Assembly (NCBI GenBank): GCA_963575745.1
Contig: CAUYUJ010000251.1
Location: 62,001 to 116,313 of the forward strand
Source: Prorocentrum cordatum
Lineage: Eukaryota
Length of the DNA: 54,313 nucleotides
Reading direction: 5' to 3'
Shown: positions 24,220 through 40,049 of the stretch, piece by piece
How positions within the stretch are numbered: position 1 is the first letter of the stretch
How the letters are laid out: every line of letters starts with the position of its first letter
The notes under the pieces: model-generated
The model's input: only the letters and a program-made list of their open reading frames with translations
Database searches by the model: none
Told to the model about the DNA's origin: nothing
Position numbers and translations under genes: made by a program

Positions 24220-26060
24220 GGGCTGGGAGCGAGCCAGGGAGAAGACGCAGGGCCGCCCAGCGACGGTCCGTCGCACCCAGTGGCAGGGGGGGCAACCTCT
24301 GGCAGCCGGGACCGAGCCCGACGAACCAAGAGAGCGGGGAGGCCGTCGGGAACGAGGGCCGAAGTGACGGTCCCGGCGTGGACGCGCTGGGGTCGAATGC
24401 GACGGTTCGCGGCGGCAGCCTCCTGCAATTCTAGCGACGCCGCTCCAGCGACGCCGCTCCGGCCGCCGTCCGCAACACCTTTTCCCCTCGGCTTCGGGCT
24501 GGGAACGGACTCGAGAACACTGACCAGGAAATGACGTATGACCAGGAAATGACGTATGTCTTCAGGTTGACACCAGCACGGCGGGCTCCATAGATTCCTA
24601 AGATACCGAACAAACGTGCCATGCTGTATCGCATGCCCTCCAAGCTCGCTCACTCACTGACTGGCGCCATTGAACGTGTGGCAAACGAAACGCAGTGCTG
24701 TCGCCTGAGCCATGACCTGCATCGATTGATGGCTGCGCCCAGGGATCCACCCCTGAAGCCAGACAAACTCCAATTTCCGATTCGTGTTGGGGAGGCCTCA
24801 GAAGTTGGTCGGGGACCCGCGGCTCTTTCGAAACAAGACTGGGAAGAAGGAACGAGCTGGGCATGGCAAGACAGCGCAGGGAGAGCGCACGAGTTATAAT
24901 TCCTATTCAGCCTCAGCAGGGCTCTCGTGGCCGCCGCGCTCCTCGCCCTGAAGGAAGGGTTTGCCGCGGGGGGCTTCCACTGCAAGGCCAGCGCGGCCTC
25001 GGGCCCAAACCGCATGCCTCCATATTTGGCCACGCCTCGGATTGGACAATGAGGAAGGCTCGGCGCCGTCAGGGCGAGCGCCGCGCGAATCCTCTCGGAC
25101 GACGACGGCGATGCCTGCCCGCGGAGAGGCAATGCTATGCACTTGTTATCCTGCAGGCAGAGAGACGCCAGCGGTCGGGCTGCCTCGACGAGGGGGCCAC
25201 AAGAAGCCCGTCTTAGACCTGAAAGAAAAACGTCAACATCATAAACACACGCACCTGCCGCTGGCCGATCTGCAGGCGACACGCGCGCAGGCCCTTCGCA
25301 CCGGTGACGAAGAACCTTCTATGACTCGATTGCCAACGGCGCACCATCTGAGCGGGCACGCCTGCGCCGCTCCAGCCGAGGCGCGAAAGAAAACTTATCT
25401 GCCGTTCCCAACCCGTGCTCAACTCTGCATCTCATGATGGAGCGCCCGGGTATCGAACAAGAAGCCGGGCGACATGGAACTCGAAGGCAGCTGCCATCAA
25501 TGCCGACCCCGCCGAGGGGGAGGCGCCGCGTGCACCGAAGGTGAAGAATCCAAGTCGATGTCCACATGTATTCTTGTGCCAAACCACCATCCTAGCCAGA
25601 GCATTCAGCTCCGCAGTGTGAGAAGAGGACTGGCGGCCTTAAGCATCCACGCTGGATGCGATGGCGGCGAGGCTCTGCCGCGGCGCGCAGCTGAAGTTTG
25701 ACGACCGCCGCCGCCGCCGCCGCCGAATCATCGTTCTTCTGTGACAGCAGACGAAGGGCATCGAAGGCCATCGCAAGGTCAGCATGTTCTTTGGGCGCTC
25801 GCCCTTTGGGGTGGAGATCATCGGGTGGCGGTCGAAGCCCCGCGGCGGGCCCAGTCAACATACCATGTCACGTCAAGTCACGTCCCGTCGAGAGGCCTGG
25901 AGGCCGCTCGCTCCGCAAGCGGAGACGGAGGGCGTGAAACAATACGGCAAGGACATGCGCATGCATGAAATTGTGAATATAGCGAAAGATTTTCCTCGTG
26001 GGCCCGCGCGACAAATGCGAAGTGTCGTTTGCTTTAGCGCATGCGGACGCAGCGATCATA
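24220..26060 (-). mobile_element. Highly degenerate LINE ORF2 fragment (RT and post-RT)
   Basis: Remnant motifs in the expected order: LRLLSQKNDD (cf. RPLSLKN), ACVYDVD (cf. ACADD), LCLQDNKCIALPL, AKYGGMRFGP (cf. KYLG..GP), YNSCALPALSCHAQL. Confidence 0.65.
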
Positions 26061-26569
26061 TCGCGCTTGCGTCGAGGTGGGGCGTGGCATATGTTATGGG
26101 AGGCTGCTGGAGTTGGCCAGGCCCGCTGTGGTGCTCGAGCACCCGCATGTTATGGCGGCTGTGGGAGTTGGCCGGACCCCGTGTGTTGTGTCTTTCGGTA
26201 GGGGAACCCCTCCCCCGTAGAATCATAGCTTGTGCTAAAGGTCCAAGGCTCCGTGGATCAATTTCCCCATGGGCCGCTTTGTTTTAACTGTTATTATAAA
26301 TTCATTCCAAAAGAATTGGATCCACGAAGCTTCCACGCCAAAAAATTGGATCCAGAAGACGCGGAAATAAGATCCACGTGACTCTCGCGCACACGTAATT
26401 GGATCCAACTGGATCCGTGCGTTCCCATGCAAGAGGAAAGAACATTCGGACTGGGGGTGTATAGTTATAAAATTCTATCTTACATTATGCGTTCCACCAC
26501 GTGTAATTCGAAAATGCAGTCTCGAACCGCTGCCAGGGGAAAGGCTCTTGGCGACCTACGACATGTGAT

Positions 26570-31289: not shown

Positions 31290-32110
31290 CTCTGCTATTC
31301 GTCGGCATGCCCATTTCGGGGCACCCCTCGCACGCTTCGTGCTCCCTTAGCTGGGGTGCTCCATCTACGGCCCCTGCGGGCGCGCGCGCATGGTGGCGCC
31401 GCGCCCAAGCCGGCGCACTCCTCACACGCTTCGCGCCCCAGGTGAAGCTCAACCTGCGGCACCAGTCGACGCGCCCGCATGGTGGCGCCGCGCCTGTTGC
31501 GCCGCTCGCACTCACGCGCTCGTGCCACATAGGGAGCTCCACCTGCGGCCCCAGTGAACACGTCCGAATGGCGGCGCCGCGCCGATTTCGGCACGCCCCT
31601 CGCGCGAATGGTGCCCCACAGGAAGCTCCGCCCACGGCTCTAATGGGCGCGCCCGCACGGCGGCGCCGCACCCGTTCCGGCACACTCCTCACTCGGATCG
31701 CGTCTCACAGGGAGCTCCATCTGTGGCACCAGTGGGCGCGCCCGCGTGAGGGCGCCGCGCGGCGCACTTTTCTCACGCACGGTGCCCCGCAATGAGCCCT
31801 TCCCGCGGCCCCAGCTGGTACGCCCGCATGGCGGCACCACGCCCATCCTGGCACACCCCACACGCAGGCTATGCCGCGCAGGGGGCTCCACCGCCAGAGC
31901 GAGGGTGCTGGCATACGGGCCAGGGCCCATCCCGGCCCACTCCTCACACGGATTGTGGCCCTCTGGGAATTCCACGGGCGGCCCCAGTGGGTGCGACCGA
32001 ATGTGGGTCCGCGCCCAGTTCTGCACACTCCTCGCGCGGATCCCGCACTTCAGAGAGTCCATCGCGCCTGTGCGCGCTTGCTCCGCAGCCCCATCCGCAC
32101 CGCAAAGTGG
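31290..32110. repeat. Degenerate GC-rich tandem repeat (cgcatggtggcgccgcgcc...gcacactcctcac)
   Basis: The motif recurs about six times at ~110-240 bp spacing. Confidence 0.65.
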
Positions 32111-32738
32111 CGCGCACTAGATGGAGAGGGGGTCGCGCTTTGCGCCACACACCGCTACATAAGGCTGGGTCCTTCGCGAGACTATGCTTTAGGGGTCGGC
32201 CGATGCTGACACATTGGCTCTCTCCTCCCACTCCATCACCCGCATTCCTCTCCCATCCCTCGCCTTCCCTACTCCTTCCTACAGACACATGCCCCCTCCC
32301 TCCATCGTCGCCATGTCCCCCCCTCCTCCTCCTCCTCCTCTTCCTCCTCCTCCTCCTCCTCCTCCTCCTCCTCGTCCTCCTCCTCCTCCTCCTCCTCCTC
32401 CTCCTCCTCCCCCTCCTCCCTCTGTCACGTGTTCCCCTCCATCATCCGTCCTCTTCAACCCTCCACCCTCTCTCATCCTTATCCCGCCCCCCCCCCTCCA
32501 TCATCATTGTAACTTCTCCGCCCACCTTTCTTCCTCCTCTGGTTCAGCGGAGTGGGCCAGCTCCCGCTGCGCCAGGGGGGGAGCAATAGGAAGGAGGAGG
32601 AAGAGGACAGGGAAGAAGGATCGATGATGTAGGATCATGTAGGTCCTCCTCCACCCCCTCAGGAGTTGTGTTTGTCTCTCTCTCTCTCTCTTTTTCCTTA
32701 CTTTGCCACAACCCAAGAAACCTCAGTCTTCAGCTGTT

Positions 32739-33326
32739 TTACACTCTTGTTGCAAGAAGGCCAGCAGCCTCCCGGGAAGCCGCATCTAATGCTATTGCTT
32801 CTGCGCCGAATACGGTCATAAGTAATTCTAGAAATGTGCCATGTGCGATCCACGGTTCGTAATAATACTCGCTGTCATCGTCCTCGATATCCCGCTTACC
32901 CCAGAGGCCGATGATGAACGACGCTGCTGCGCAGTCTCGTTCACGAAGTCCTCCGTCTGTCTGAATGATGAGGTTGGCGTTGTCTATGCGTTGAATAGTC
33001 GTGTATTGCCTTGTCCATGTGCACCGCTTGTCCATGGTGAGATCAGCCAAGCCGTCGGCCACCTTGTTGTAATCCCGCCTCCACCACTGCACCGGGTCTT
33101 GGTTGATGTGCGGGGGTAGCCAACCTCTGCCCATGTGATCGACGGTCCTGTTCAGCACCCGTGTCAGGAGTGGCTCGTACCCTGGGTCGTGTGACTCAGC
33201 ATGTCCACATACAACATCTCGAAGTATTTGTGAATCCGTGACATTAAGAAAGTGCTGCCTTGCAGACGCCCAAGTTGACCGCGGCACTGTCGAGCAACTC
33301 GTGCGGCTCCGGCTCAAGACCTTCAA
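32739..33326 (-). CDS. Circularly permuted RNase H domain (C-terminus of LINE ORF2)
   Basis: Motif order VTDSQIL, WWRRDYNKVADGLAD, IIQTDGG, FGAEAIAL; the canonical order is DG, AE, DS, N..AD. Confidence 0.8.
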   Translation of the reverse strand: MKVLSRSRTSCSTVPRSTWASARQHFLNVTDSQILRDVVCGHAESHDPGYEPLLTRVLNRTVDHMGRGWLPPHINQDPVQWWRRDYNKVADGLADLTMDKRCTWTRQYTTIQRIDNANLIIQTDGGLRERDCAAASFIIGLWGKRDIEDDDSEYYYEPWIAHGTFLELLMTVFGAEAIALDAASREAAGLLATRV

Positions 33327-33475
33327 AGGTTAGTTAATAATTCTCGGATTTCCCGGTCTATGCGCATACGCTTTGCTGGACGATCTCCGGCAGTCTCGCC
33401 GTCGTCAACTGGTAACCGCCAGTTTGAACAGAAAGCCGAAGCGACCTGCACGCGAATTGCTTTCCACTCTGCCCA

Positions 33476-35770
33476 TTACGTGGACCCACGTTGATGGCGC
33501 CAATGCACTCCCAGAGCCATCACGATCGGATCTTCCCATGCTGGCCGGTGCCCGCTATTTCTCTGGAGCAGCCCTTCCGTGCGCCTTCGCTGTGCGTCCA
33601 AATCTTTCACCGTGGCCCACGTTACTCTCGAGTTGTAACCTCTTGCCAAACATAGCGGCGACATGCCCTCGTCGTTGCACGCCGCGGGCTCGTAGTTGGC
33701 AGCTTTGCACACGTAGCCGAGAACAACAATATGAATTGATTGAAAGCCCGCACGGGCCATCCGTCCTTCTATCCTGCTTGCCTTGATTTGCAGATCGTCT
33801 TGATACGTCTCGGCTGGTTTACGTCTTAGCCGAAAGGCGCGTCGGAGGAATTTGAACTCCCAGCTCCGCAGCTTGTGCATGAGATCAGCTGTCACGTGCC
33901 ACGTCTCTGTCCCGTGAAGTGCCGAAGCCCGCGGTCCTCTGCACCATGCTCGCATCTTGTCTTGCACCGTAGCTGGCGCGCACAAGGCGCGCGAATCTGC
34001 CCAGAAGTAACTTTCGGCTTCGCTCAACCAGAAGTCGATGCTGGCCGACGTGCTGCCCTGGCTGTCGATGATTTCCCCCAGCACGACCATGCCGTCGACC
34101 ACCACGAAAGCACGGTGCGGGGCCGGCCGGGCTGCCACGGTGAAGCCTGGCAGCGTCCGCGCTCGACGCGTCACCCGCCGCCGCGACCTGCAACGAAGCC
34201 CCTTTCCAAGAGAATCCGCTGGCTTCGATCGCCTCCGTGGTCGCCGCCATCATGCGTTCGAGGTCGCCCCTCGTGTCAGCTATCAGCCAAATGTTGTCGC
34301 ACCGAATTAAATGAGATATTGGAGTCCCGCTCGACAGCATGCTGCCGAGCCCACGGGCCTTCCAGGAGACAACAGTGCTATGCAGGAGGTACTCTATCAT
34401 GATTTTGAACAGGCCAGGGGTGTCGACGCCGCCCTGTGTGCCTCCTTTGGTGTACGGGAACAACTCAGTCAAGTCACATCCATCCAAAGATATGCGTGCT
34501 TGGAGGTCGCTGAGCTCTCGGAAGACATGAGAGATCGTCATTGGGTAAATGCATCTCCACCGCATTGCCTTTTCACGAACACCGTGCAGCATATCATCAA
34601 ACGCAGTGCGAACGTCCAGCGACGCTACATATGCAGAAGCACCCTGATAGACCGTAGCGCCATGAAATATCGGCCGGATGGTGCCCGAAATATGCGTCGT
34701 CCTCCGGCCTCGCTTAAACCAAAAAATGGACACAATCGACGGGCTTCACCTGTAAACGGAGCTGATCACGTAACGATACTTGATACCATTTATGGCTGGC
34801 CGCTCGCTTGCCAATACACCGCAAACTCTTTTCAAAAGTGAGCGGCCCGGTAACGTCTGGCTTGGGTATTCTGGCGTACTCCAAAATCTTCCATGACGTA
34901 GGGCACGCGTGTGCTAGATCACGTTGCTGCCGCTGGAAACAATTCCAATAAAACAAACACACAATAAATGGCAATGCCTTGTAGACCTCTGGCGGTATGT
35001 CGTCGATTCCAACGGCTTTTCCAACGTACAAAGCGGTCCTACCCTGTAGAACCTCAAATAAGCTCAAATGTGCATGGGACCTACCGTCAAAAATAGCATT
35101 GGTTCCTTCACTGTGTAATTGTTGTAATCGCATCCCTTGTGTGGCGTAACTGTTCGATACATCCGTGAACCTCCCCCTCCCGAACTCCTCCGCGGCAGTG
35201 CGGATTGATGCTCTGTCAGTCAACTCGCTGGCCTCCGTGTGCACTGCCATTGGCATGGCTCGTGGCCTGGATATGTTGGCCGTGCGGATCTTCAGCAGCT
35301 TGCGCCCCGTAACTGCCGCCCGCGATGCTTTCCGCAGTCTTCGCATCTCCCTCACCCGGTCCTGCCTGTCCAGCCCCGTACTTCCAGTGATCGAGCGTCT
35401 GGCTGCCTTCAAGGTCTGACTACGACTCGTCCTCTCGGATCGTCGTCTGCTTGCCGCCGTCGTGTGAGGGACAGTGTGTAGTATACGGCTCAACTGGCTC
35501 TCAAACGTGGTCATATCAGGACACCAGCGTAAACTATCCTGCACTTGCCGCTGGAATTCCATGTTAGCCTCCCCGTCAGCGAGCGCCCAACCTTTGATGG
35601 GACGTTGATGGATATGTCGACCTTGCAGCACGATAGCCCTCGGAAAACTAAACGAAACTGTGATAGGTATGTGGTCCGACTTGCACAAAATATCTGGCGT
35701 TCTCGTAATAGGCCGTGCATGCCCATTGACTGCCTGAGTGCACAACATGTAATCGATTTGCGATTTACAG
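33476..35770 (-). pseudogene. LINE ORF2 endonuclease C-terminus plus reverse transcriptase, in three overlapping frameshifted ORFs
   Basis: ORFs 34714-35748, 33885-34733 and 33476-34174 carry consecutive LINE ORF2 motifs (SDH; LDV..AFD; QGG..TP.LF; MVVLG; LHGTETW). Confidence 0.9.
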
Positions 35771-35895
35771 CACTTTTGTTCCCAACCCTCCTGCGTTGGG
35801 TTCTCGTTTTGAATAGAGCACTGCTCGCGCGTCTCCTTCCTTCGTTCCCGTCCCTCTCTTCAACCCCCTCCTTTTACCTCGCTCGTCGCCATCCC

Positions 35896-38088
35896 GCCAC
35901 TTTCGAGGCCTGCTGGGGGGCCCAGCACAGTGGGTACCCACCGCAGACTCAAATTAGACCTCGCCATCCCTGGGGGCTGCGATCTGTGAAACTGTCGCCA
36001 CTTTCGAGGCCTGCTGGGGGGCCCAGCACAGTGGGTACCAACCGCAGACTCAAATGGGACCTCGCCATCCCTGGGGGGCTGCGATCTGTGAAACTGTCGC
36101 CACTTTCGAGGCCTACTGGGGGGCCCAGCACAGTGGGTACCCACCGCAGACTCAAATGGGACCTCGCCATCCCTGGGGGGCCGCGATTTGTGAAACTGTC
36201 GCCACTTTCGAGGCCTGCCGGGGGGCCCAGCACAGTGGGTACCCACCGCAGACTCAAATGGTACCTCGCCATCCCTGGGGGGCTGCGATCTGTGAAACTG
36301 TCACCACTTTCGAAGGCTGCTGAGGGGCCCAGCACAATGGGTTCTCACCGCAGATTCAAATGGGACCTCGCCATCCCTGGGGGGCTGCGATCTGTGAAAC
36401 TGTCGCCACTTTCGAGGCCTGCTGGGGGGCCCAGCACAGTGGGTACCCACCGCAGATTCAAATTAGACCTCGCCATCTCTGGAGGGCTGCGATCTGTGAA
36501 ACTGTCGGCACTTTCGAGGCCTGCTGGGGGGCCCAGCACAGTTGGTACTCCAGTGGGTACCCACCGCAAACTCAAATGGGACCTCGCCATCCCTGGGGGG
36601 CTGCGATCTGTAACATTGTCGCCACTTTCGAGGCCTGCCGGGGGGCCCAGCACAGTGGGTACCCACCGCAGACTCAAATAGGACCTCGCCATACCTGGGG
36701 GGCTGCGATTTGTGAAACTGTCGCCACTTTCGAGGCCTGCTGGGGGGCCCAGCACAGTGGGTACCCACCGCAGACTCAAATGGGACCTCGCCATCCCTGG
36801 GGGGCTGCGATCTGTGAAACTGTCGCCACTTTCGAAGCCTGCTGGGGGGCCCAGCGCAGTGGGTACCCAACGCAAACTCAAATGGGACCTCGCCATCCCT
36901 GGGGGTCTGCGATCTGTGAACCTGTCGCCACTTTCGATGCCTGCTGGGGGGCCCAGCACAGTGGGTACCCACCGCAGACTCAAATGGTACCTCGCCATCC
37001 CTGGGGGGCTGCGATCTGTGAAACTGTCACCACTTTCGAAGGCTGCTGAGAGGCCCAGCACATTTGGTACTCACCGCAGATTCAAATTTGACCTCGCCAT
37101 CCCTGGGGGGCTGCGATCTGTGAAACTGGTCGCCACTTTCGAAGGCTGCTGAGGGGCCCAACACAGTGTGTACCCACCGCAGCTTTAAATTAGACCTCGC
37201 CATCCCTGGGGGGCTGCGATCTGTGAATCGTCGCCACTTTCGAGGCCTGCTGGGGGGCCCAGCACAGTGGGTACCCACCGCGGATTCAAATTAGACCTCG
37301 CCATCCCTGGGGGGCTGCGATTTGTGAAACTGTCGCCACTTTCGAGGCCTGCTGGGGGGCCCAGCACAGTGGGTACCCACCGCGGACTCAAATTAGACCT
37401 CGCCATCCCTGGGGGGCTGCGATCTGTGAAACTGTCGCCACTTTCGATGCCTGCTGGGGGGCCCAGCACAGTGGGTACCCACCGCAGATAAATTAGACCT
37501 CGCCATACCCTGGGGGGCTGCGATCTGTGAAACTGTCGGCACTTTCGAGGCCTGCTGGGGGGCCCAGCACAGTGGGTACCCACCGCAGATTCAAATTAGA
37601 CCTCGCCATCCCTGGGGGGCCGCGATTTGTGAAACTGTCGCCACTTTCGAGGGCTGCTGAGGTGCCCAGCACAGTGGGTACCCACCGCATATTCAAATTA
37701 GACCTCGCCATCCCTGGGGGGCTGCGATCTGTGAAACTGTCGCCACTTTCGAGGCCTGCTTGCGGGGCCCAGCACAGTGTGTATCCACACGCAGATTCAA
37801 ATTAGACCTCGCCATCCCTGGGGGGCTGCGATCTGTGAAACTGTCGCCACTTTCGAGGCCTGCTTGCGGGGCCCAGCACAGTGTGTACCACCCGCAGATT
37901 CAAATTAGACCTCGCCATCCCTGGGGGGCTGCGATCTGTGAAACTGTCGCCACTTTCGAGGCCTGCTGGGGGGCCCAGCACAGTGACGCCACACGCAGAT
38001 TCAAATTAGACCTCGCCATCCCTGGGGGCTGCGATCTGTGAAACTGTCGCCACTTTCGAGGCCTGCTTGCGGGGCCCAGCACAGTGAC
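35896..38088. repeat. 102-bp tandem satellite, ~21 units
   Basis: Unit gccactttcgaggcctgctggggggcccagcacagtgggtacccaccgcagactcaaa(tgg/tta)gacctcgccatccctggggggctgcgatctgtgaaactgtc; starts at 35896, 35997, 36099 and onward. Confidence 0.97.
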
Positions 38089-38257: not shown

Positions 38258-38570
38258 TGAGAGGACAAGAGGGGGAGGAGGAGGAGGGGAAGGATGAGGA
38301 GGAGGAGGAGGCGGAGGAGGAGGAGAAGGAAGAGGAGGAGGAGGAGGAGGAGGGTGAGGAGAAGGAGGAGGAGGGGAGGAGGAGGAGGAGGAGAAGGAGG
38401 AGGAGAAGGAGGAGGAGGAGGACGGGAGGAGACGAAGGAGAAGAGGAGGAAGAGGAAACGGAGGAGGAGGAGAAGGAGGAGAAGGAGGAGTGAGCAATAG
38501 CGAGGATGGGGGAGGGACCAGGAAGGAGGACGAGGGAGGAGGGAAGAGCAAGCAGGAAGAGGAAGGGAGC
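38258..38570. repeat. (GGA)n tract
   Basis: Read directly. Confidence 0.9.
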
Positions 38571-40049
38571 AAAAGAATGGAGAGAGCTGCCAGAGACCGC
38601 TGCCGTGCCCAGCTGCAGCACTGAAGCACTGTGTAGTGACAGGCACGAGCACCCACCCACCATGAGCAGGTCGAAAAGTCGCGGCCGAGGTGCCAGCCGG
38701 GGCTTCCTCCACATCCATCCTGGGACCCCAGGGGGCGGTGGATACGGATATACGCGGGGTCGCAATCTATCCATATCGACGACGTCTCGGGCGGTGGACA
38801 CGGGTACTTAACTACCGTATGCAGCGAGAGCAAGAACGGACGGCTCCCTTCGTCCACAGCATGCGGTACGCGTGCAGAAGTTGTCCCCTGGGGAAGCTAA
38901 CAGGTACTGCTACCACTGCTCCCAGGGCCTCGGGGCGCGTTCTGACCAGGATCTCGAGGCGAATCCAACGGTGGCGACGAAGCGGGGGTTTCTGGATGTT
39001 CGTCTTCCCCTCCACTTCCCATAGTTTCCCATATTTTCCACGGAATCGACGATCATTTATGTCTGTGTCTTCGGTCCTCCTGAGATCCAAGAGAACACAC
39101 TGGAACCGCTTGATCCGGGATGGCTCCTGTTTCAGAAGGGTGCTGGACAATATCTGCATGGGGCAGGATGTGAGCCGGGACAACTCGAAATCTAAGCACA
39201 ACCTGGGGAAACTCCAGCGCGACCACCCCTTGCCCTGATAACTCGGGGCTCTGAACGCCTGGCGGGGCCATGTTTGCCGAGGGATTGGATGATTGCAGGA
39301 CAGCCGACGCCGTCGCCGTCGCCGACGGCGCCAATTCCCGCGCCGACCGTCGCCTTCGCCGCGCGAGGCGCGCTCATCTGAGCGACGAAAAGACAAGGGC
39401 CTTAATTACGCGAGATGGCGTAGCGACCTTACGCGGTGGCTCACGCGGACCGCCAGCGTGGGACACCGCGTGGAGAAGAGAGCGTTTACGCACGACCTTA
39501 CGCGGGCACGGCTTCATTGCGTACGCGCCAGTGTCGGTTCAAACGGCTCCGGTTTCCTGCGGCACGCATCTGGGGCAACAAAAGGACACTGACCTCTCCA
39601 AGGGAACGCCCAGACCAAAACTTCGGGGAGCATCCAACCGTGGCGACGAGTACTCTCCAGGACGAGCAACGGTATTGGTATCTTCTCCCCTCCGACTATC
39701 GGAGAGAAGTGCGCTCGCCGCAGGCGGCGGCCCGGCGGCGCCTTCGCGCGCGAGGCGCGCTCGGCGAAGAACGGGCGCGCCACCGCGCACACGCAGCGCA
39801 GTGTCTGCAGCGGCGCGACCGCCTGTCCGCCGGGCGCCGACTGGTCGCCTCGCGCGGCGGGCGGGCCGGCGGCAGCGGAGCGTCCTCCTCCTCCTCCTCC
39901 GTTCTTCCTCCTCCTCCTCCTCCTCCTCCTCCTCCTCCTCCTCCTCCTCCTCCATCCCTTCTCCTTATAGATAACGCCCCCCTGTCGCACACGCAGGCGC
40001 GTCAGTGGGGCGCGCTGGGCGCTTCGCCTAGAACGCCCTCAACATGTAT

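Follow-up and report, generated by a model that had tools for sequence, protein, structure and literature searches.

A putative circularly permuted archaeal-type RNase H domain at the C-terminus of a LINE ORF2 protein in Prorocentrum cordatum

Here, we describe the C-terminal domain of open reading frame 2 (ORF2) in a long interspersed nuclear element (LINE) copy from Prorocentrum cordatum, located within a stretch of 54,313 nucleotides (contig CAUYUJ010000251.1, positions 62,001 to 116,313, assembly GCA_963575745.1) that is hereafter called the window. With a probability that we put at roughly 85%, this domain is a type 1 RNase H of the archaeal (RVT_3-like) type that has undergone circular permutation in nature. 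An initial annotation, made from the sequence motifs, had proposed such a permutant, and the proposal is supported by the fixed order of the two halves among the relatives of the domain, by homology to canonical enzymes established half by half, and by profile alignments (hhalign) of the re-ordered domain. The features of the terminal ORF2 segment (P0001), as read from its translation, are the following:

32739-33329, minus strand: terminal ORF2 segment of the LINE (P0001), a stop-to-stop frame of 196 codons with a terminal TAA
33018..33263, minus strand: first half in the chain (residues 22-103), corresponding to the C-terminal half of a canonical RNase H
33234-33236, minus strand: D31 in the motif VTDSQIL
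33075-33077, 33066-33068 and 33054-33056, minus strand: R84, N87 and D91, respectively, in WWRRDYNKVADGLAD
32976..33017, minus strand: new linker (residues 104-117, about 14 residues), without a partner in the canonical template
32751..32975, minus strand: second half in the chain (residues 118-192), corresponding to the N-terminal half of a canonical RNase H
32955-32957, minus strand: D124 in the motif LIIQTDGG
32799-32801, minus strand: E176 in the motif VFGAEAIAL

Translated with the standard code, positions 32739-33326 of the minus strand give 195 residues and a stop (TAA at 32741-32739), and the whole permuted RNase H domain is contained in the 32739-33329 segment. The residues D31, R84, D91, D124 and E176, as well as the stop, lie where the initial annotation had placed them, and the swapped order of the motifs in this segment is confirmed. 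We take D31 to be D70 in E. coli numbering, D91 to be D134, D124 to be D10 and E176 to be E48, with R84 replacing H124. The canonical RNase H chain runs beta1-beta2-beta3-alphaA-beta4-alphaB-alphaD-beta5-alphaE. Here, the chain would instead run from beta4 to alphaE, pass through the new linker and continue with beta1-beta2-beta3-alphaA to the stop, so that the old alphaA/beta4 loop would be opened and the old termini joined. The first half (beta4, alphaB, alphaD, beta5 and alphaE) bears D31, R84, N87 and D91, and the second (beta1, beta2, beta3 and alphaA) bears D124, G125, R128 and E176. The linker bridges the old C-terminus at the end of alphaE to the old N-terminus at the start of beta1, and contains a short extra strand and a family-conserved S/T-W (family consensus TMDxxxSW).

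A search of P0001 against 1.84 billion cluster representatives returned 329 relatives at E ≤ 1e-3, 97 at E ≤ 1e-10 and 8 at E ≤ 1e-30, and all of the 150 matches listed were single colinear stretches, typically covering residues 17-186 of the query. Since there are this many relatives, and since the columns most conserved in the family are those of the motifs, the motifs of P0001 are more than a chance occurrence. We built a family alignment of 68 members (A1; 24-56% identical to P0001) and separate hidden Markov models (HMMs) for each half, with which 154 family proteins were scanned. The half with the DS and R..N..AD motifs was followed by the half with the DGG and AE motifs in 120 of these, and one additional protein had the same order with its second half split in two; the others were fragments featuring the first half only (19/154) or the second half only (14/154). 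Intact members with an additional half, which the initial annotation had singled out as incompatible with a permutant, were looked for specifically. None of the 154 proteins had a canonical or tandem order, with a DG/AE half placed upstream or a DS/N..AD half placed downstream, and there was likewise no extra half in three further long ORF2 proteins (P0285, P0286 and P0287). In line with what had been claimed for the window itself, the three minus-strand frames of 33330-33480 hold no upstream DG/AE half, and neither does any scanned relative.

The domain also stands at the very end of the proteins. In 93 of the 96 proteins that reach the AE helix, the chain ends at most 26 residues past the second-half match, the longest tail being 67 residues. 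The long relatives P0002, P0285, P0286 and P0287 (836, 1120, 1131 and 827 amino acids, the last three being 32-42% identical to P0002) all carry the reverse transcriptase (RT) family RVT_1 upstream (E 1e-7 to 4.7e-9 in P0285-P0287) and end 2-12 residues past the second-half match. That the swapped order is a local artefact of a decayed copy, arising from internal rearrangement, from adjacent truncated domains or from misassembly, has next to no chance of being correct. The window copy is certainly degenerate, with at least three frame changes and at least two in-frame stops upstream of the RNase H segment, yet the order is shared by these 120 of 154 independent relatives with no other order observed, and also by ORF2 proteins of 827-1131 amino acids at 32-42% identity to P0002. 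The swapped order is thus a fixed character of the family and not damage to the window copy. It is plausible that the permuted RNase H may define a distinct LINE lineage, as the initial annotation had suggested.

For 3 of 30 relatives looked up an organism label was found, and two of these are transcriptomes of the dinoflagellates Biecheleria cincta and Karenia brevis. Additionally, a 63-residue fragment (P0011), 92% identical to residues 98-160 of P0001, carries the EukProt label of the green alga Pyramimonas sp. Together, the Pyramimonas and dinoflagellate labels mean either that the family spans both groups or that one transcriptome is contaminated.

The residues expected at the active site are conserved almost throughout A1. 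D31 is kept in 57 of the 58 non-gap rows, while among all 68 members R84 is kept in 66, N87 in 68, D91 in 66, W81 in 66, D124 in 67, G125 in 68, R128 in 68 and E176 in 67. This pattern is what a working DEDD active site with the archaeal-type Arg and Asn would give. It also bears on an alternative that we regard as unlikely, namely that the chain has a permuted RNase H-like fold without RNase H function and serves as a structural or nucleic-acid-binding domain of the 'connection' type, or as a nuclease for another substrate. Such a role would suit the fact that curated RNase H models barely detect the domain, and that the family has invariant residues of its own, for example R128, W81 and M98. 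However, the catalytic carboxylates together with R84 and N87 are retained in at least 66 of 68 members (D31 at the frequency given above) across 24-56% identity, and R128 belongs to a DGGxR motif that also occurs in solved archaeal-type RNases H and in L084, a canonical RVT_3 sequence. The nearly invariant M98 is part of a family motif, N-x-T-M-D-x3-S-W, at residues 95-106 of P0001 (33009-33044), which comes after the N..AD helix and extends into the new linker; Rv2228c (3hst) aligns there with a similar N-D-A-M-D.

The homology of the domain to archaeal-type RNases H was assessed using profiles. Searched against the sequences of the PDB, the A1 profile matched 10 chains at E ≤ 10, and the top six are all archaeal-type RNases H, in the order 3hst (E 1e-4), 3u3g, 4h8k, 3aly, 2ehg and 4e19; the remaining four, at E ≥ 1.1, are unrelated. 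For 3hst, 3u3g and 4h8k, HMMER reported two stretches in swapped order, with profile positions 170-191 (the DGG strand) on chain residues 3-25, and positions 118-152 or 130-151 (R..N..AD) on chain residues 101-138. The first half pairs with residues 101-135 of 3hst and 72-130 of 2ehg and 3aly, and R84 and N87 align to the motif WVPRxxNxxAD of 3hst and 2ehg. The Pfam family RVT_3 matched 27 of the 68 A1 members at E ≤ 1 (best 2.5e-6), and every other family matched at most one member. Among 24 members examined singly, RVT_3 was matched in 11. Ten of these aligned with their first half, at positions 52-123 of the RVT_3 profile, and P0089 aligned with its second half (290-347), at positions 2-56. 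P0114 (23.2 bits) was the only one of the 24 above the curated RVT_3 cut-off of 21.6 bits. A feature search of the ESM Atlas gave RVT_3 and RNase_H clusters at 0.91. These profile matches show that each half of the domain shares homology with its counterpart in a canonical RNase H. The description of the domain as archaeal-type in the initial annotation is borne out as well, the matches going to RVT_3 and to solved archaeal-type RNases H and not to the E. coli-type RNase HI.

Re-ordering the two halves, a check that the initial annotation had proposed, was carried out with hhalign against a template of four full canonical RVT_3-type RNases H (301 Pseudomonadota genomes were searched, five of which had a match). 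The best match of the native A1 alignment covered residues 22-99 of P0001 (score 47.2, E 1.8e-7) and spanned 68 columns at template positions 62-132, i.e. the C-terminal half only. The second match covered residues 121-190 (score 21.8, E 0.0069), with 58 columns at template positions 4-61. When residues 108-195 were placed before residues 18-107, a single alignment reached a score of 52.9 (E 1.7e-8, probability 95.4%) with 126 columns at template positions 4-132, and this was the top of the 24 orders of four blocks. In this alignment, residues 23-99 of P0001 pair with template 63-132 and residues 121-191 with template 4-62, and D124, E176, D31, R84, N87 and D91 pair with template D7, E47, D71, R117, N120 and D124, respectively. 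Cuts through the R..N..AD motif lowered the score to 30-34. In the controls, 20 column shuffles reached at most 16.7 and the reversed order 20.2. At the level of sequence profiles, re-ordering clearly increases coverage, and every catalytic residue is clearly paired; the gain over the native order is in the direction that had been predicted.

An AlphaFold2 model, calculated with A1, has a mean predicted local distance difference test (pLDDT) score of 91.7 and a predicted template modelling (pTM) score of 0.88. In its first half, the model features a strand at residues 25-30, helices at 33-39 and 48-66, a strand at 79-81 and a helix at 88-100. The linker forms a short strand at 104-107 and then coil to residue 117, and the second half has strands at 118-128, 132-144 and 154-166 and a helix at 172-192. 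The model thus contains, in permuted order, five main strands as well as four helices, and it confidently predicts a single compact domain that has the correct strands and helices. His124 and a basic protrusion are features of E. coli RNase HI. We read the model as the full set of RNase H elements without the basic protrusion, cut in the alphaA/beta4 loop and with the old termini joined.

Permuted or duplicated proteins can swap domains, and it could therefore be proposed that the halves complement each other between two ORF2 molecules, giving a domain-swapped dimer that rebuilds two canonical folds. We consider this quite improbable, as the monomer model is compact at the pTM given above, with a pLDDT of 95-98 across the linker blocks, and the length of the linker is conserved in the family.

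The model was also compared to known structures, using VIA-align 2 against the set 'pdb_via_wide' (48,161 chains), for which the stated noise range is Z under 8. Three rows reached Z ≥ 5 and none Z ≥ 8, the top rows being RlmH-like proteins (Z 5.6-6.2). RNase H rows were found at ranks 12, 14 and 28, and RT-linked RNase H rows at ranks 15 and 39. Residues 14-105 of the model align to the C-terminal part of 3u3g, 3aly and 4e19 (Z 4.1, 4.0 and 3.7), residues 110-194 to residues 346-419 of the Ty3 RT (Z 3.5, root mean square deviation 2.9 over 68 residues) and residues 62-195 to the cauliflower mosaic virus (CaMV) RT (Z 4.0), all of these within the noise range. We regard the full structure search of the predicted model as compatible with a permuted RNase H, and as no proof of it.

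These searches bear on the possibility that the resemblance of the motifs is due to chance and that the domain has another alpha/beta fold. The top structural rows are indeed RlmH-like and CinA-like proteins (Z 4.6-6.2) and not RNases H, and the top matches of Foldseek are PelC and LptE-like lipoproteins. However, the RlmH-like and CinA-like rows lie within the noise range, three independent profile methods give only RNase H or RVT_3 with the catalytic residues paired, and the shuffled and reversed hhalign controls score far lower. Another fold is thus very unlikely.

Several results weigh against a permuted archaeal-type RNase H and are brought together here. P0001 on its own, whether whole or by halves, has no Pfam match at E ≤ 10, and also no match at E ≤ 10 in a phmmer search against the PDB. 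In the same range of E ≤ 10, the neighbouring ORF pieces gave only a weak RVT_1 match in Pfam. As the single-sequence searches of both databases are empty, the link of P0001 to RNase H is visible only with profiles. The gain in score from re-ordering is modest (from 47.2 to 52.9), and the canonical template holds four sequences only. With profiles of E. coli-type RNase HI, no block order scored above background in hhalign: a single rnhA template gave a probability of 0.65%, with residues 119-192 of P0001 placed on residues 5-68 of rnhA (TDG on TDG), a set of 85 enterobacterial RNase HI sequences, all relatives of at least 79% identity, gave flat scores of 16.4-17.4 at every cut point, and 80 proteobacterial RNase HI loci of greater diversity gave scores that stayed flat at about 21.6. 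The E. coli-type templates are uninformative, and the re-ordering test worked only with RVT_3-type templates, which fits the archaeal/RVT_3 affinity of the domain.

On the structural side, Foldseek gave nothing at E ≤ 1e-3 against the PDB, with no RNase H among the rows listed, and among the rows of the full structure search those of RNase H (Z 3.5-4.1) rank below unrelated folds and all lie within the noise range. For a predicted model, such searches thus lend no independent support to the identity of the fold. Weak matches by Foldseek and VIA-align are nevertheless expected, because sequential aligners cannot overlay a permuted chain. In addition, most of the relatives are short gene calls from ENA or JGI metagenomes or transcriptomes, made on short contigs and with the stop codons as called.

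For the permuted archaeal-type RNase H, the following mechanism can be outlined. The folded domain would rebuild the usual RNase H architecture and active site, and in intact elements it would cut the RNA strand of the RNA:DNA hybrid resulting from target-primed reverse transcription. Removal of the RNA would free the first cDNA strand for second-strand synthesis. In RNase HI structures, the active site is distant from the alphaA/beta4 loop as well as from the points where beta1 begins and alphaE ends. Because the old and the new termini lie away from the active site, such a rewiring would be tolerated. Tandem duplication followed by loss of the outer halves is the usual route to a circular permutant, and the permutation could have arisen here by the same route from a tandem RNase H duplication (the tandem form was seen in 0 of the 154 proteins).

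We are inclined to accept, with some reserve, a broader account in which a LINE lineage, widespread in marine protists including dinoflagellates, would carry an active permuted archaeal-type RNase H, the first in any retroelement. According to this account, the domain would be derived from a tandem pair and tethered to the RT via beta4 and not via beta1, which would shift the placement of its active site relative to the polymerase.

Few folds have received as much study as RNase H, in research on retroelements as well as on protein folding. If the domain is indeed a permutant, it offers a natural system in which to test the influence of chain connectivity on RNase H folding and catalysis. It would also explain why standard domain models miss RNase H in these LINEs, and 'RNase H-less' annotations of such elements may consequently be wrong. 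Furthermore, it would supply a clear synapomorphy by which a LINE lineage, abundant in data from marine plankton, can be defined. A nuclease tethered via another strand would also prompt the question of what determines its spacing from the polymerase.

The LINE copy hosting the domain shows continuous homology to P0002 and P0285 over 35766 -> 32751, in four blocks in frames -2, -3, -1 and -3. Upstream and downstream of the terminal segment described above, its features are the following:

34723..35766, minus strand: putative C-terminal remnant of an AP-type (apurinic/apyrimidinic) endonuclease, linker and N-terminal part of the RT (tblastn with P0285 120-465, frame -2)
34185..34796, minus strand: RT core (tblastn with P0002 152-357, frame -3, 55% identity, in-frame stop near the start)
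33401..34108, minus strand: post-RT region of ORF2, thumb/C-terminal region (tblastn with P0002 382-616, frame -1, 46% identity, internal stop)
32675..32738, minus strand: 3' untranslated region of 43 nucleotides, followed by an A5(GA)8 tail at 32695-32675 (sequence reading)

The terminal segment, 32739-33329, is 60% identical over 175 columns to the C-terminus of P0002. In Pfam searches, the RT of the window copy matches RVT_1 with E 5.6e-4 and 20.1 bits, under the cut-off of 29.6, and the RT of P0002 matches it with E 7.3e-14. Of the putative endonuclease, the window copy, P0285 and P0286 retain only the C-terminal stretch, identified by eye from IDY...SDH motifs; no Pfam endonuclease match was obtained in the window copy or in the endonuclease stretch of the long relatives. 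The A5(GA)8 run is likely the tail and 3' end of the element and, as this is the likely end, nothing more would be encoded past the AE helix. At the other end, homology in the window begins at residue 120 of P0285, marking a 5' truncation, and ends about 130 nucleotides short of a satellite array of 102-bp units. Because the homology halts near this array, and because of the frame breaks and stops, the window copy is a dead, 5'-truncated and frameshifted LINE pseudogene. No second copy of the LINE was found within the window.

The RNase H segment is the best-preserved part of the copy, having no stop at its 60% identity to P0002; the RT and post-RT blocks are 46-56% identical and have frameshifts and stops. 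This better preservation could be chance in DNA so rich in GC. GC content is high across the window (42-70% per 2-kb interval), which is also rich in repeats. The satellite array (35895-38086) has 21.4 copies of its unit with 91% matches, and all six frames are open throughout. The element is additionally flanked by an 89-bp tandem repeat (4.5 copies) and by long CCT/GAG/TCC triplet arrays (31358-31760, 32322-32419, 38269-38542 and 39883-39953). Among the 61 other long ORFs, the sole Pfam signal was Carbam_trans_C at 25745-26284 on the plus strand (E 5.9e-5, 23.1 bits, cut-off 27). No match to the dinoflagellate spliced-leader motif was found in the window, allowing up to two mismatches.

In the literature searched, no retroelement was described as having a permuted RNase H. 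The words 'permut' and 'circular' are absent from the main text of a survey of the RNase H-like superfamily (Majorek et al. 2014, PMC3985635), and 'permut' is absent from the main text of a paper on archaeal-type RNase H (aRNH) in oomycetes (PMC5348765). Two further papers retrieved (PMC5029228 and PMC13524379) use 'permutation' for statistical permutation tests and not for protein topology. In the parts of the article that we consulted, the CIRPIN screen of AlphaFold DB clusters (PNAS 2026, PMC13552848) reports one circular permutation between two RNase H-like domains, and its authors state that no earlier permutation of a ribonuclease was in the literature except RNase T2/BECR. Like the LINE domain, this pair is a case of natural circular permutation in a fold of the RNase H-like class. 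It differs in that the proteins are unnamed in the text and 'retrotranspos' is absent from the main text, and the pair may or may not belong to the LINE family described here.

Compared to the solved archaeal-type enzymes, namely RNase HI of Sulfolobus tokodaii (2ehg/3aly), the N-domain of Rv2228c (3hst), LC11-RNase H1 (3u3g) and Halobacterium RNase H1 (4e19), the LINE domain shares the Arg in place of His124, the N..AD helix and a first strand like DGGxRGNPG. In contrast, these enzymes have canonical topology and are free-standing or differently fused, and each of them matches one half of the query at a time. With E. coli RNase HI (rnhA, RNase_H PF00075), the same DEDD chemistry is expected, but there is no significant profile similarity to the LINE domain in any order.

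Dual (tandem) RNase H domains have reportedly been described by Ustyantsev and colleagues (2015) in retroviruses and in Tat/Ty3 long terminal repeat (LTR) elements. Retroelements can therefore carry a tandem pair, which is the intermediate needed by a route of duplication followed by truncation. These are, however, LTR elements with two complete domains, unlike the LINE family, in which the tandem form was not seen among the 154 scanned proteins. The closest parallel lies in other LINEs, where an aRNH is said to have been found at the C-terminus of ORF2 proteins by Smyshlyaev and colleagues in 2013. In plant L1 elements and in oomycete LINEs, aRNH (RVT_3, PF13456) is C-terminal in ORF2, according to the sections consulted of Ustyantsev et al. 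2017 (PMC5348765). The plant and oomycete elements and the family described here have in common an archaeal/RVT_3-type RNase H after the RT of a LINE with an AP endonuclease, which is putative in the family described here, as well as the motifs DGGxR, AE, DS and R..N..AD. They differ in topology, the plant and oomycete domains being canonical with beta1 first, whereas here beta4 comes first and alphaA last.

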